Shown here in pieces: positions 1,445 through 21,539 of a stretch of 21,539 bases of DNA. A model generated the notes under the pieces. It saw only the letters and a program-made list of their open reading frames with translations. It made no database searches and was not told where the DNA came from. This stretch comes from a virus (Duplodnaviria > Heunggongvirae > Uroviricota > Caudoviricetes), in IMG/VR virus record IMGVR_UViG_2565956714_000006, positions 1 through 21,539 of that record; one strand, written 5' to 3'. A program made the position numbers and the translations under genes. The number at the start of each line of letters is the position of its first letter. Position 1 is the first letter of the stretch.

Positions 1445-2640
<1,196 letters not shown>

Positions 2641-2728: not shown

Positions 2729-4726
2729 CTATTCTGACAACGAATCAGACTTCGCACCCTGCGTCAGGGCGTTAATTGCCTTTTGTGCCTGCTGCATGGC
2801 TTTCTCAAACGCTGTTGATCCGCGTGGGGTGTTTGCCATTCGGAGCATTGCATTTCTGAATGGCTCGCTCTCATAGGCGCGAGTAAGAAGTCCGTAGCTT
2901 ACTGCTGCGCCAGTTGTCGCCGGGTTCATTGCCGTCCCATACCCAATAATGAACGGGATAGTTTGCTGCCCTGTGGGTGTTGTTACTGCCGCTTTTGCAG
3001 CCTGCTGCGTGGATTGCAGGTAGTTTTTTAATCCTTTCAGATAAGCGGCTTCCTGACCTTTAAATGTGATGCCAGTCTGGTTTTGCAGGATGTTAAGCTG
3101 TCGAAGGAACTGGTCAGGGGATCCACCTGATTTCTCCATCGCCTTTCCAATGATGCCATTGCGCATTTGCGCCCTGCCAACACGACCAACTGAGTTATAC
3201 AGCGTCTTAATTTCCGATTTGTTCTTGCTGAATAGCATGTTGTTGACAACTTCCGGCGTCAGGTCGCCTTTCATGAGAACATTCTTCAGCCTGGTATTCT
3301 TTAGTTTCGCCGCTTCGTCAGCGTAGACGGCATTGGCCTGCTGATATTTACGGAGAGTATCGTTGCCAAGATTCTGACCAATGGCACCATTGATATCGTC
3401 TGTCATTGCCTTGTAAACGCGCTGAATGGCAGCATCGGACCGGTTTGGTAACACTGGTCGTTCCCCCTTCACGTCCATTCTGAACTGGCTGCGCAGATCG
3501 CTTAATTGCTTCAAATCCAGATTTACCGGACCATCAGGACCAGCATTGCGAACAAGCTCATCACGATAGGACTGAAGTTTTGAAATAGTCTCGTTATCGG
3601 CGACCTTACCAAGCTTCTGCAGGTTAGATATTTCTGTATCAATCTGCTGAATTGCTCGAGCAGGCTGGATATTGACTCCCGCCATTGCATTCTGAACCTG
3701 CTCAAGACGGTTCCCTGCAGCACGACGAATTCCTGATGTTTTCGCTTTAAGGCTGTCAATAACAACAGCTGGATCATACTCACCGAATTTATCAGCAAAT
3801 CTCTGCACCAACTGGCTTCTCGCTTCCTGTTGCGTTGCTCTCATTCCGCTTGTGCCAGCCAGGGGGATATTTTCCGCTGTCGTCTGCGCCATTTTCCCGA
3901 CGCGGGAAGTAGGCTGTAACAGGTCTGTGGTGTGCAGAGGAACTCCTTCACGCTCTGCAAATCTGATAGCCTGCTGCGCTTCTGGCGCAATAGCACCACG
4001 AACGCCACGATAAGCAGCACCTAATCCACGTCCGGCAGCGTTAATAGCACCGCCAGCCAGCACACCAACGCCTAAATCGGTAGCGAGTGCTTCAGCATCA
4101 TCTTTCATACTGTTTGCAGCAAGTGATCCAACTGCGTTTTCTGCTAGAAGGCGAGTTGCCCCCTGAGCAATTCGACCAGCAAGTGTTGGTGCCTGTACCG
4201 CCGCTCTCTCAACGCCAGCAGGAGTGAGGTAAGGCAATGCTTCAGCAAATACCCTTCCCTCTGTCGTTTGTGGAGTCAGCGCGCCTTGCTGAAGGCCAAA
4301 GTCCTGCTCTACCCCCTGCGTTGTTACTCGTGGCGCTGGTTGATATGTACCATCGCCAATGCCGAGTTTACCGCCAGCCCATGCCGCTGCGCTTGTTACA
4401 GCATCGGCAACTGATGCAGGTATGTTTGCCACGTTCACGCCAGCCTGCACCAGTCCGCGACCAGTCTCTTTTACTGCTTCGCCAAGATCAGACATAAATC
4501 CACTTTGCTGTGGTTGTTGCTGTGCTACTGGTTGCTGTGTCTCCACTTGCTGCACAGATGGCAATGGATAGGCAGCATAGAAAGCTTGCTTAGCCTGCTC
4601 TGCATTTTCTCCGGCTTGCGGGGCCACGACTTCATTGAAGTATTGCTCCTGAGCCTGCGCTTTTTGTTCTGGTGCTAACGCCTGATACTGTGGAGAGGCG
4701 ATAACATCTTTCCATGCTTTAGCCAT
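2729..4726 (-). CDS. P22 gp16-like ejection (internal virion) protein, 665 aa
   Basis: Last gene of the morphogenesis operon in the position of P22 gene 16 / Sf6 gp13. Ala/Gln/Gly-rich composition typical of ejection proteins. Start ATG overlaps the upstream stop (TAATG). Confidence 0.7.
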   Translation of the reverse strand: MAKAWKDVIASPQYQALAPEQKAQAQEQYFNEVVAPQAGENAEQAKQAFYAAYPLPSVQQVETQQPVAQQQPQQSGFMSDLGEAVKETGRGLVQAGVNVANIPASVADAVTSAAAWAGGKLGIGDGTYQPAPRVTTQGVEQDFGLQQGALTPQTTEGRVFAEALPYLTPAGVERAAVQAPTLAGRIAQGATRLLAENAVGSLAANSMKDDAEALATDLGVGVLAGGAINAAGRGLGAAYRGVRGAIAPEAQQAIRFAEREGVPLHTTDLLQPTSRVGKMAQTTAENIPLAGTSGMRATQQEARSQLVQRFADKFGEYDPAVVIDSLKAKTSGIRRAAGNRLEQVQNAMAGVNIQPARAIQQIDTEISNLQKLGKVADNETISKLQSYRDELVRNAGPDGPVNLDLKQLSDLRSQFRMDVKGERPVLPNRSDAAIQRVYKAMTDDINGAIGQNLGNDTLRKYQQANAVYADEAAKLKNTRLKNVLMKGDLTPEVVNNMLFSKNKSEIKTLYNSVGRVGRAQMRNGIIGKAMEKSGGSPDQFLRQLNILQNQTGITFKGQEAAYLKGLKNYLQSTQQAAKAAVTTPTGQQTIPFIIGYGTAMNPATTGAAVSYGLLTRAYESEPFRNAMLRMANTPRGSTAFEKAMQQAQKAINALTQGAKSDSLSE

Positions 4727-18071: not shown

Positions 18072-18509
18072 TTATTTCAGGCATTGCGTCCTGATGTACT
18101 CCTGCAGGTAGTTAACCTGCGCGGTTATCTTGTCGATTCCACTTCGGAGACGGTAATAATTGAGTTCAGCATCTGCTGTAAGTCTTGGGCTTTCTCCATC
18201 GCCCATGCCGCTGGCTCCGGTCGTTGACTTTGCACAGGTGGCGGCGACTTGCAGGCGCTTACGCCCAGCAGAAACATCAGCACGGAGACTTTCGATAGTC
18301 GCGTTAGCATCAGCAAGCTCCTTTGTGTATCTTGCGTCGAGTTCTGCTACATCACGTTGACGCTTCTGCATATCAGCGATGATGGATGTGGCTTTATCGC
18401 GCTGCTCTTTGTAGGTCATGGCGTTATCACGGTAATGATTAACAGCCCACGACAGGCAGACGATGATGCAGATAATCAGAGCGGAGATAATCGCGGTTAC
18501 TCTGCTCAT
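18072..18509 (-). CDS. Rz: Rz i-spanin, 145 aa
   Basis: N-terminal about 30 aa match lambda Rz ([28 protein letters not shown]) with signal-anchor TM; start overlaps the R stop. Confidence 0.9.
18125..18310 (-). CDS. Rz1: Rz1 o-spanin lipoprotein embedded in +1 frame within Rz, 61 aa from ATG (track lists a TTG start at 18316)
   Basis: Signal peptide with lipobox VSAC, Pro-rich mature part, fully embedded in Rz as in lambda. Confidence 0.75.
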
Positions 18510-18982
18510 GCCTCAATCTCTCTTACCGTTCCGCCAGCTTCTTTGAATTTTGCAATCAGGCTGTCAGCCTTATGCTCGAACTGACCATAACCAGCACCCG
18601 GCAGTGAAGCCCAGATATTGCTGCAACGGTCGATTGCCTGACGAATATCACCGCGATCAATCATCGGTAAAGCGCCACGCTCCTTAATCTGCTGCAGCGC
18701 AACAGCGTCCTGGCTTTTGGGAGAGAAGTCTTTCAGGCCAAGCTGCTTACGGTAAGCATCCCACCAACGGGAAAGAAGCTGGTAACGTCCGGCTGCTGTT
18801 GATTTGAGTTTGGGGTTTAGCGTGACAAGTTTGCGAGGGTGATCGGAGTAATCAGTGAATAGCTCTCCGCCAACAATGACGTCATAACCGTGATTTCTGG
18901 TTTTCTGTCGTCCGTTATCTGTTCCCTCTGACCACGCCAGCATATCGAGGAACGCCTTACGTTGATTATTGATTTCCACCAT
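18506..18982 (-). CDS. R: Endolysin R (lytic transglycosylase), 158 aa, lambda-type
   Basis: Near-identical to lambda R as recalled ([26 protein letters not shown]...). Confidence 0.95.
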
Positions 18983-19289
18983 CTTCTACTCCGGCTTTTT
19001 TAGCAGCGAAGCGTTTGATAAGCGAACCAATCGAGTCAGTACCGATGTAGCCGATGAACACGCTCGTTATATAAGCGAGATTGCTACTTAGTCCGGCGAA
19101 GTCGAGAAGGTCACGAATGAACCAGGCGATAATGGCGCACATCGTTGCGTCGATTACTGTTTTTGTAAACGCACCGCCATTATATCTGCCGCGAAGGTAC
19201 GCCATTGCAAACGCAAGGATTGCCCCGATGCCTTGTTCCTTTGCCGCGAGAATGGCGGCTAACAGGTCATGTTTTTCTGGCATCTTCAT
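18966..19289 (-). CDS. S: Holin/antiholin S (S107/S105 dual start), 107 aa, lambda-type
   Basis: Near-identical to lambda S as recalled, including the Met1-Lys2-Met3 dual-start motif (ATG at 19289 and 19283). Confidence 0.95.
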
Positions 19290-19414
19290 GTCTTACCCCC
19301 AATAAGGGGATTTGCTCTATTTAATTAGGAATAAGGTCGATTACTGATAGAACAAATCCAGGCTACTGTGTTTAGTAATCAGATTTGTTCGTGACCGATA
19401 TGCACGGGCAAAAC

Positions 19415-19444
19415 GGCATGAGGTTGTTAGCGCAACCTCATGCC
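19415..19444 (-). terminator. Perfect 12-bp stem hairpin (GGCATGAGGTTG / CAACCTCATGCC, 6-nt loop); candidate terminator or processing element downstream of the tRNAs
   Basis: Perfect inverted repeat; on the minus strand followed by GUUUUG. Lies in the otherwise empty interval between the tRNAs and S. Confidence 0.4.
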
Positions 19445-19531
19445 ACCCGCTTTCACGAAGATCATGTGTAGAAGGCCGCAGCGTAACTATCACTGATGAA
19501 TTCAGGATAGCCAGTGGCTACGGCTCAGTTA

Positions 19532-19607
19532 TGGTGCTGGTTAACGGACTTGAACCGCTACCCATTCGCTTACAAGGCGACTGCTCTACCATTGGAGCTA
19601 AACCAGC
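19532..19607 (-). tRNA. tRNA-Thr (anticodon UGU), CCA encoded
   Basis: Hand-folded cloverleaf: perfect 7-bp acceptor stem, D-arm GCTC/GAGC with GG loop, anticodon loop CTTGTAA, T-arm with TTCAAGT loop, discriminator A. Confidence 0.8.
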
Positions 19608-19612
19608 ATGTT

Positions 19613-19687
19613 TGGCGGGACAGCGTGGACTCGAACCACGATAAGAAGGTTAACAGCCTTCCGTAATGACCTTTATACGACTGACCC
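19613..19687 (-). tRNA. tRNA-Asn-like (anticodon GUU), CCA encoded, one acceptor-stem mismatch
   Basis: Hand-folded: acceptor GGGTCAG/CTGTCCC (T-T mismatch at 4:69), anticodon stem GAAGG/CCTTC with loop CTGTTAA, T-arm CGTGG-TTCGAGT-CCACG. Sits 5 nt from the tRNA-Thr. Confidence 0.65.
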
Positions 19688-19691
19688 AAAT

Positions 19692-19733
19692 AAAAAAAGC
19701 CACCGTTGCAACTTAAGAGTCACTAACGGCAGC
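19692..19733 (-). terminator. tR'-like leader terminator between the late promoter and the tRNA genes
   Basis: Minus-strand RNA stem GCUGCCGUU / AACGGUGGC (9 bp with two G-U pairs; would be C-A/A-C mismatches on the plus strand), 17-nt loop, followed by UUUUUUUAUUU. Confidence 0.5.
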
Positions 19734-19743
19734 TTACCTTCTA

Positions 19744-19773
19744 ATTATGGCTAAATGGATAATTGCATGTCAA
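19744..19773 (-). promoter_or_regulatory. pR'-like late promoter (sigma70 -35 TTGACA, 18-bp spacer, -10 CATAAT) at the 3' end of Q
   Basis: Consensus -35 hexamer at 19768-19773 and 5/6 -10 hexamer at 19744-19749 on the minus strand, where lambdoid phages place pR'. Confidence 0.55.
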
Positions 19774-20269
19774 GGCTTTTAACAGCAACATGCTTAACTT
19801 TCTCAACACGTTTACGCATTTTGAAAGCATTTTGCATTGGCTGGTACAAAACAAATAACGACGCTTTCAGGATGTCGTCAATTTCGTTTCTACAGGTTGC
19901 CAGTGAAGGTTTTCTCCATCCCTCGCCACCACGTCCACACATCTTGCGTGGCTTTGCAGTCGCGTGATAGTAGGATGCAATTGCTCGCTTAGATGAACCA
20001 TGAGCGTAGTAGCTGAGGAGGATGCCAAAGGCTTTCTTGTCAATGCACATGACGGAATCGACGACCTGAGAAATCAACATTCCATCATCATCATTGCACA
20101 TTGGCCTTGTCATAACTCTTCCCGGCTCTACGCTCTCCATGAACTTCGCTATTACGCTGCTCATACGCTTTTCCAGACGACCTGAATAAACCCATGCGCC
20201 CCACAGTTCAAGCCAGCCATTCAGCCACTCATGATGTTCTTTGGTGAGGTTTAGTTCTCTTATGCCCAC
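19751..20269 (-). CDS. Q: Late antiterminator Q, phi82/933W type, 172 aa with probable GTG start overlapping the ninI stop
   Basis: Motifs [21 protein letters not shown] and LLSYYAHG match the conserved pattern of 933W-type Q as recalled; unlike lambda Q. GGAG lies 7 nt upstream of the GTG. Confidence 0.7.
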
Positions 20270-20931
20270 GCGCCTTCTCCCTGTACCTGAATCAATGTGA
20301 GATTTCCGCAGAACACTGCCCCAGTATCGATATACATCTGGTTGGCAAATTTGAGTGGTTTCACTGCTGGCGTATGACCAAAGATAAACGTGTCCGCGCC
20401 TTTAATTTCTTTAACGATCCCGTCTTGTGAGTTGCTGATTCGTTCGCGGTTCCAGATTACCTGCTGATGATCAACTGGCTTTCCAAATTCGTATTCGTCA
20501 CAAGGATAATCGGCGTGGCAGATGACATATTTTTTACCTTTGCTCACCAGTTCGATGATTAACGGAAGTTCTTCTGCTTTATGGGCAAGAGCTTTAGCCA
20601 GAATTTCTTTGTCGTAATCGAGATTAAAGAACCAGCCACCGCCATTAAGCAGCCAGTGATTAACGTTTCCACGCTCTGATAAGCCATCAATCATCATTTG
20701 CTCATGGTTTCCACGTACAGCTCTGAACCAGGGGAATGTGATTAATTCCAGGCATTCAACGTTCTCTGCACCACGATCAACCAAATCGCCCACCGAGATA
20801 AGCAGGTCTTTTTTGTTGTCGAATCCAATCGTATCCAGTTTGTTCATCAGGTTCGTGTAGCATCCGTGCTGATCGCCAACTACCCAAATATTTCGGTATT
20901 TGCTGCCATCAATTCTTTCGTAGATATTCAT
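20260..20931 (-). CDS. ninI: NinI Ser/Thr protein phosphatase (lambda PPase), 223 aa
   Basis: Near-identical to lambda phosphatase as recalled ([26 protein letters not shown]...GNHE). Confidence 0.95.
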
Positions 20932-21539
20932 GCAGCCTCACTTCTGCTGTTTCGCAGTTTTTTAAGTTTCTGTTGATACTCCGCCTTGATGGTCCTGCAC
21001 TCTTCGACAGTCCAGCGATGGCGGTTATGGTTTGATTCGATTTCGTCTACTGCTTCCTGCCCGATGCGGTTAATCAGTTCGACGCGATACGGAACGAGAT
21101 TTCCGCTTTTGTGCTGGTTGCACACCACGCATTGCTTGTGAATATTGCGTTCATCAAATCGGAGTTGAGGCGCCGCAGCAGTTGTCCGGTAATGCCCGGC
21201 ATCCCACTGAGCAGACGTGAGCGTTCCGCACGAGATACATGGTAAGTCGCGGTCTCTTTCTCTGATGAAGGCGTTTACGGCTTGTTGGGCTTGTTTAATC
21301 CAGTAACTGCGGGGCTTTAAGGCGAGTTTTCGAATCTTAAGTTTATCTTTCTGTTTCTGCTCCTCTCGTCGTCGTTTCTTCTCTGCTGCCTTTTCCGCTT
21401 TTTCGCGTTCTTTGCTTCGTCGTTCGAGTGCTATCTTGGTTCCACACTCTGGAGAGCACCACCACTGATTGGCGAATGCAGGGTGAAACCATTCCCGACA
21501 TTCATCGTTTTTACATCGTCTTCGCGCTGGTTTAGCCAT
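20928..21539 (-). CDS. ninG: NinG (Rap) recombination/Holliday-junction endonuclease, 203 aa; window ends at its start codon
   Basis: Near-identical to lambda NinG as recalled ([33 protein letters not shown]...). Confidence 0.95.

Follow-up and report, generated by a model that had tools for sequence, protein, structure and literature searches.

A late control region, very probably of the phage 21 type, at the 3' end of the Q gene of a P22-like temperate phage

Background

Does the short interval that separates an antiterminator gene from two tRNA genes in a tailed phage (Caudoviricetes) control the late genes as a whole, or only the tRNA genes beside it? The question arises from a first-pass annotation of a stretch of 21,539 nucleotides (IMG/VR record IMGVR_UViG_2565956714_000006; this whole stretch is called the window hereafter, and all coordinates refer to it), which noted a consensus-like promoter at the 3' end of the Q gene, followed at a distance of about 45 nt by a strand-specific terminator. 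The two were read as a pR'/tR' pair with an unusually short leader, on which tRNA and lysis expression would depend through Q antitermination; a dedicated tRNA promoter with a leader structure was offered as the alternative.

The leader transcribed from pR' is 194 nt long in phage lambda, and 258 nt long in Stx phages. Lambda and the Stx phages (933W/Sakai) follow the logic proposed here for the window: the promoter is constitutive, polymerase makes a sigma-dependent pause close to it, and read-through of a terminator depends on Q. Their Q proteins differ from Q21, the antiterminator of phage 21, in both length and family, and Q-lambda has no structural similarity to Q21. The phage 21 late regulatory region was reportedly treated by Guo, Kainz and Roberts in 1991, and the work of Yin in 2019 is said to be likewise a source for this system. 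Experiments on phage 21 have shown that Q binds its binding element (QBE), that a pause occurs, that transcription terminates at tR', and that read-through depends on Q. Two Q protomers bind two TGAGCA direct repeats located between -35 and -10, which cannot function without their C:G pairs at -21 and -13; bases are read by residues H95, A124, R127 and R128, and also, in the minor groove, by R113 (Shi 2019). Q21 engages polymerase held at a -10-like element, and one of its protomers forms a ring in the RNA exit channel; as this ring admits only single-stranded RNA, terminator hairpins cannot form. With a 21PR'-21tR' template, Q-dependent read-through was obtained in vitro (Shi 2019).

We located each element of the region in the window and compared it with known phages and with a wider set of loci. 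This set comprised 32 fetched loci of the Q21 family (59-98% identity), five phage loci and the window, 38 in all, and included Escherichia, Pantoea, Yersinia, Morganella, Providencia, Edwardsiella, Xenorhabdus and other genera. Our main conclusion is that the cassette is very probably the late-gene control switch of a P22-like (Sf6-like) temperate phage, and that this switch is of the phage 21 type. Such a cassette is already known: it is annotated in Sf6, was discussed for phage L in 2020, and has been dissected biochemically and structurally for phage 21; the variant subsites and Q differences described below are likewise already published for phage L (PMC8022706). The analysis thus adds little beyond the textbook Q-dependent late switch, and its practical value is that the coordinates of each element are now fixed in the window and that the short leader is shown to be normal for the Q21 family.

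Results and discussion

The Q gene and its overlapping promoter

The gene that precedes the interval (19751..20269, minus strand) encodes a Q-type late antiterminator of 172 aa, belonging to the Q21 family (PF06530, E = 1.3e-25). It matches the Q21 structures 6JNX and 6P18 with E values of about 1e-90, and is 85% identical to the Q21 of these solved structures and 81% identical to the Q of AJ237660, an older phage 21 record. The window's Q and Q21 are nearly identical as far as residue 102 and diverge beyond it, with two of the five base-reading residues changed in the window (H95R and R128N). Compared with the Q of phage 21, that of the window also has a 10-residue C-terminal extension, through which the gene overlaps its own promoter; indeed, its last 10 codons overlap the -35 hexamer and the predicted Q-binding element.

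Direct indexing confirmed the promoter of the first-pass annotation, TTGACA-18 bp-CATAAT straddling the Q stop, at 19773-19744 of the minus strand. The -35 hexamer TTGACA of pR' occupies 19768..19773 (-36 to -31) and the -10 hexamer CATAAT, 18 bp away, 19749-19744 (-12 to -7); the Q stop codon TAG (19753-19751) lies within the spacer, 1 nt ahead of the -10. A promoter scan gives pR' 11 of the 12 consensus bases, and it is the sole match of at least 10/12 on both strands of the whole 21.5-kb window. Dinucleotide shuffles yield an expectation of 0.235 sites of at least 11/12 per window, and 21.5% of them contain at least one such site. The score alone is therefore only suggestive, a chance occurrence somewhere in the window being only modestly improbable, and it is the position and conservation of the promoter that carry the argument. 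Its 18-bp spacer is suboptimal for sigma-70 and counts against our main conclusion.

A predicted Q-binding element between -35 and -10

The predicted QBE (19749..19764, minus strand; -27 to -12) is made of two tandem 8-bp repeats, AATTATCC and ATTTAGCC. Their core hexamers are TTATCC (-25 to -20) and TTAGCC (-17 to -12), and the second subsite contains the Q stop codon TAG. The element keeps C at both -21 and -13, and its register is that of the phage 21 QBE, as given by Shi 2019 and by the QBEu and QBEd features of OL657228, the complete genome of phage 21.

Within this common register, several differences separate the two phages. The subsites read TTATCC/TTAGCC in the window and TGAGCA twice in phage 21, so that hexamer positions 2 and 6 are changed; at the base-reading positions of Q, the window has R95 and N128, and phage 21 has H95 and R128. 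The spacer is 18 bp long in the window, against 17 bp in phage 21. The -10 of the window (CATAAT) is better than that of phage 21 (AACACT), and the two are equally distant from the pause element. Across the Q21 family, the bases of the subsites change together with residues 95 and 128 of Q (see below), which supports TTATCC/TTAGCC as the probable cognate site of the window's Q.

Predicted start site, pause element and terminator

The late transcript is predicted to start at G19737 (+1, minus strand), 7 nt past the -10. The position is transferred from phage 21, in which the annotated start is 1 nt ahead of the pause element. The corresponding sigma-dependent pause element (SDPE) of the window, the -10-like sequence TAAGCT (19731..19736, minus strand; +2 to +7), is identical to the phage 21 SDPE.

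The intrinsic terminator tR' follows (19692..19735, minus strand), in which a 17-bp hairpin (+3 to +41) overlaps a U7 tract (+40 to +46). A hairpin (19735-19697) and a U7 tract (19698-19692) are thus indeed present at the proposed distance from the promoter. The hairpin reads AAGCUGCCGUU-A-GUGACU-CUUA-AGUUGC-AACGGUGGCUU; it has four G-U pairs, a loop of 4 nt and a bulge of one base, and the U7 tract contributes its first two residues to the two final pairs. Two G-U pairs and a 17-nt loop had been described initially. Both of these pairs are found in the outer stem, but the loop has to be redrawn, since folding closes a second stem within it to give a single hairpin, and this inner stem adds two more G-U pairs. 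A simple terminator scan missed the hairpin because loops were limited to 3-8 nt, and it was folding that revealed it.

The predicted stability of the hairpin is -20.2 kcal/mol (z = -4.6), a value reached by none of 200 shuffles, compared to -10.6 kcal/mol for the RNA of the opposite strand, where the structure follows an A run and has no U run after it. The proposal that the hairpin is specific to the minus-strand transcript therefore holds: a stable G+C-rich hairpin with a U run, as expected of an intrinsic terminator, is present on the transcribed strand only. It is by far the strongest hairpin-plus-T-run of the whole window. Pairing is also conserved, as 88% of cells are paired among 15 distinct family sequences and seven pairs change on both sides, compared to 31-62% of cells paired in a control where partners were slid by 1-3 columns. 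Across the 15 distinct leader sequences, T16 and G17 (19722-19721) are invariant.

The tRNA-Asn gene (GTT; 19613..19687, minus strand; ARAGORN, with an Rfam tRNA score of 55.3 bits) starts at +51. The U tract had been placed right at its 5' end; the tract is there, but four bases (AUUU, 19691-19688) lie between the two. According to this layout, the leader RNA released at tR' would measure about 46-48 nt and end 3-5 nt short of tRNA-Asn.

Relationship to phage 21, Sf6 and other phages

The phage 21 genome OL657228 is annotated with a -35, QBEu and QBEd, a -10, a start, an SDPE, a terminator and tRNA-Asn; the terminator annotation cites PMID 1704887, and tRNA-Asn begins 50 nt past the start (+51). 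The window resembles phage 21 in its Q family and in the order and register of all these elements: -35, two subsites, -10, start, SDPE, tR' (at about +3 to +50) and tRNA-Asn. In addition, the late region of phage 21, like that of the window, carries tRNA-Asn and then tRNA-Thr. From +2 through the terminator and the whole of tRNA-Asn, the two sequences are identical over 137 consecutive aligned columns, which means that the terminator of the window is the phage 21 tR' itself; upstream of +2 they diverge.

Shigella phage Sf6 (AF547987) is 98.6% identical to the window over the 1-kb stretch around the cassette. In its record, the bases of the cassette carry the labels 'putative late promoter P R', nearly identical to phage 21 late promoter', 'Sf6 qut site' and 'putative late mRNA leader terminator, t R'', and tRNA-Asn and tRNA-Thr are labelled 'similar to phage 21'. 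Over 201 nt (19800-19600), Sf6 differs from the window by one base in subsite 1 and by the length of its T run (T6, compared to T7 in the window); the Sf6 subsites thus form a perfect repeat of TTAGCC, whereas the window has TTATCC/TTAGCC. The QBE of Salmonella phage L/ST64T, AATTATCC/AtTTAgCC, is that of the window and was proposed as a QBE in that phage (PMC8022706). The same study predicted a late start within about 2 nt of 19737, placed the tRNA 46 bp downstream, and pointed out QBE-contacting residues unlike those of Q21 (PMC8022706). The second tRNA of phage L is different from that of the window. In both Sf6 and phage L, the annotations of the cassette are marked 'putative'. Finally, the BTP1 prophage of Salmonella D23580 is 100% identical to the window over 121 nt spanning the cassette (19800-19680).

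Several records point to a mosaic joint at the transcription start, around 19737 (+1/+2). Phage HK629 and the PhiR12 phages have the Q 3' end and the promoter in common with the window; the leader and terminator of HK629 are different (TATGCT..., with a U run at +54). Conversely, phage 21, SfI and Stx2c phages carry the leader and terminator of the window with a different Q and QBE, and tRNA-Asn is also common to the window, phage 21 and SfI. The CUS-3 record annotates a 'boundary sequence' at this joint.

The old phage 21 fragment AJ237660 suggested another QBE and a shorter spacer. It was not used to set the register, as it contains sequencing errors, which are revealed by the sequence of the solved Q21 structure, by 21-like prophages and by the complete genome OL657228. 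In this record (locus L002 of the survey, positions 4126-4650), a stretch of Q is frameshifted (LELW-AHGL instead of LELWGAWVY) and one base of the QBE is missing. The publication of the new phage 21 genome corrects earlier errors (PMC9119081), in agreement with these discrepancies.

Conservation in the Q21 family

All 38 family loci have TTGAC(A/T). In all loci except L038, this is followed by three bases, then by two tandem 8-bp repeats, with a -10 that overlaps the second repeat; a TA(A/T)G(C/G)T-like pause element is found about 7 nt further on across the family. The exception, a contig from a metagenome-assembled genome, has lost the second QBE subsite and the -10 to a deletion that spared both leader and terminator; it probably belongs to a prophage in decay. 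A chance origin of the pR' cassette is rejected on its register, its identity with phage 21 and its conservation in the 38 loci. Among 5,426 complete E. coli genomes, 354 (about 7%) carry the 93-bp cassette over at least 80% of its length.

As for the leader, a U run that starts at +39 to +42, corresponding to a leader of roughly 45 nt, is found in 19 of the 38 loci, the window included. In the other loci, the first recognisable terminator is at +54 to +109, or none was found. A similar short leader is therefore normal for half of the Q21 family, and the description of the window's leader as unusually short, which is right in comparison with lambda or the Stx phages, does not extend to its own family. 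Among the 19 short-leader loci, a tRNA gene abuts the terminator in six and does not in 13; ten have no tRNA within 500 nt.

Three loci (L014, L020 and L037) have kept the leader hairpin, with compensatory changes, in the absence of a U run after it, and family members with such a leader hairpin have a second hairpin-U-run terminator at about +99 to +109. Retention of the hairpin with a second terminator beyond it suggests that in those loci the hairpin may have a role besides termination.

The survey also related Q residues to subsite bases. Over 37 loci, residue 128 of Q tracks base 2 of the subsites: R is found with TG.., N with TT.., and there is a single K, at TTACCC. This pairing has no exception in the 36 scorable loci; in the remaining locus (L023), the register of the subsites is shifted by one base. 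Base 6 is in turn tracked by residue 95: R goes with ..C, and H, Y or L with ..A, with one exception. All four combinations of residues 95 and 128 with their bases occur among the family loci. The Q21 family may thus use a two-residue code for its DNA sites, in which residue 128 would read base 2 and residue 95 base 6. This co-variation is a lead and not a proof, as the shared ancestry of the loci inflates the counts. If true, the code would provide at least four Q/site pairs without cross-reaction, and the table of residues and subsites, a by-product of this analysis, could guide the design of non-cross-reacting Q/QBE pairs.

A model for late transcription and its alternatives

The sequence features that characterize a Q21-type cassette are all found in the window: a PF06530 gene upstream on the same strand, a sigma-70 promoter at the Q 3' end, tandem subsites with C:G at -21 and -13, an SDPE at +2 to +7, an intrinsic terminator past the pause site and ahead of the late genes, and lysis and virion genes on the same strand. 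By homology with phage 21, host sigma-70 RNA polymerase would start at pR', probably at G19737, and in the absence of Q would pause at TAAGCT (+2 to +7); the 17-bp hairpin and U7 would then be transcribed, and a leader RNA of about 47 nt released. Once Q has accumulated, two protomers would bind TTATCC/TTAGCC between -35 and -10 and engage the paused polymerase. The short nascent RNA would be threaded through a ring that one of them forms at the exit channel, so that the hairpin could not form near the polymerase, and the modified enzyme would pass tR' and transcribe tRNA-Asn and tRNA-Thr and, beyond them, the lysis and virion genes.

The interpretation of the locus as a pR'/tR' pair is supported by the annotation of phage 21 and the experiments on it (Shi 2019), and the Sf6 record reads the same way. 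For this variant, we infer binding of Q to TTATCC/TTAGCC and Q-dependent read-through from homology to phage 21 and from the co-variation of Q and subsites. The proposed dependence of tRNA and lysis expression on Q is likewise supported, by analogy with the homologous, and partly identical, region of phage 21; the tRNAs would then be made from the Q-modified transcript, with tRNA-Asn as its probable first gene.

Three other roles can be envisaged for the cassette or its parts. The terminated leader of about 47 nt might also act in trans in lysogens, as a small RNA or a decoy, by analogy with StxS. The leader is presumably made constitutively in lysogens from the near-consensus pR'; indeed, the lambda pR' is constitutively active, and the authors of the StxS study predict the same for the pR' of Stx phages. 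Moreover, short terminated RNAs have been reported for phages 21, phi80, 82 and P22, StxS itself, which derives from the pR'-tR' interval of an Stx phage, is a functional example, and the old phage 21 record AJ237660 annotates a 50-nt 'aRNA' at the leader. Against this, nearly all of the leader is held in one 17-bp hairpin, the free bases being 2 nt at the 5' end and the 4-nt loop, which leaves little room for a seed, and its conservation is accounted for by the pause element and the pairing of the terminator. A search of Rfam found no family matching the leader, its only hits being the two tRNAs, and the leader is not among the eight BTP1 small RNAs in the listed rows of the D23580 annotation (PMC6333337, S2 table). 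Such an additional role seems improbable to us.

The alternative proposed at the outset was a promoter dedicated to the two tRNA genes, in which case the hairpin would act as a structured leader and not as a terminator. The tRNA does start only 4 nt past the U tract, and the authors of the phage L study allow for either cutting of the tRNAs from the late mRNA or a promoter of their own (PMC8022706). The survey speaks against this reading, as 13 of the 19 short-leader loci have the conserved cassette with no tRNA gene beside it, and ten of these have none within 500 nt. Furthermore, the hairpin and U7 form a canonical intrinsic terminator placed between the promoter and the tRNA. It is identical to the phage 21 tR', at which transcription ends in vitro when Q is absent. 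In addition, the repeats for Q binding in the promoter vary in step with Q. Stx phages, like the window, have tRNA genes downstream of tR'; in the Sakai Stx2 phage, these appear to be driven by a promoter of their own located between tR' and stx2AB, whereas the 4 nt between terminator and tRNA in the window leave no room for a separate tRNA promoter past tR'. We consider a dedicated tRNA promoter very unlikely.

It is scarcely credible, finally, that the hairpin is mainly the 3' terminator of the early-right operon, acting on transcripts that run through Q, and the promoter-like sequence incidental: at 16-55 nt past the Q stop, the hairpin would halt unmodified polymerase coming from upstream, but the promoter elements coincide in register with those annotated for the phage 21 pR' and are conserved in all 38 loci, so that the promoter is not incidental. 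A role in ending upstream transcripts is compatible with a late switch of the phage 21 type and does not replace it.

tRNA genes and downstream late genes

Beyond tRNA-Asn, the late region continues on the minus strand with tRNA-Thr (TGT; 19532..19607; ARAGORN, with an Rfam tRNA score of 61.5 bits). The first protein-coding late gene downstream encodes a lambda S-type holin (18966..19289, minus strand; PF05106). It is followed by a 158-aa ORF (18506-18982, minus strand), which has no Pfam match and occupies the position of the Sf6 endolysin gene, and then by an Rz spanin gene on the same strand (PF03245). The order of holin, 158-aa ORF and Rz is that of the Sf6 annotation. Further on, and still on the minus strand, lie terminase, portal and tailspike ORFs, named from the best matching phage records.

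Several minor features of this region and of the rest of the window were also observed. Direct reading of tRNA-Asn shows that U4 faces U69 as a mismatch in the acceptor stem, and that the CCA end is encoded in the gene. A perfect 12-bp hairpin, GGCAUGAGGUUG/CAACCUCAUGCC, lies at 19415-19444 of the minus strand, in the interval from tRNA-Thr to the holin gene; when extended, the fold has a stability of -27.9 kcal/mol, is nearly as stable on the opposite strand, and is followed by GUUUUG. It looks like a terminator located inside the Q-modified late transcript, and the sequence around it is one that we take to be lambda-like.

In the Salmonella D23580 annotation (PMC6333337, S2 table), BTP1 has a 320-nt antisense small RNA, STnc6010, opposite the interval from holin to tRNA-Asn. 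Its counterpart would lie at about 19330-19650 on the plus strand of the window, to which BTP1 is about 96% identical there.

Upstream of Q, ninG is intact in the window (20928-21539, minus strand), whereas the ninG of Sf6 is interrupted by IS911. At the other end of the window, a DDE transposase gene of 338 aa (1477-2493, plus strand; Pfam DDE_Tnp_1 and DUF772), presumably IS5-like, sits between the integrase gene (1-1215) and a 665-aa ORF (2729-4726); this ORF has no Pfam match, and the closest phage records name it tail fibre or tailspike.
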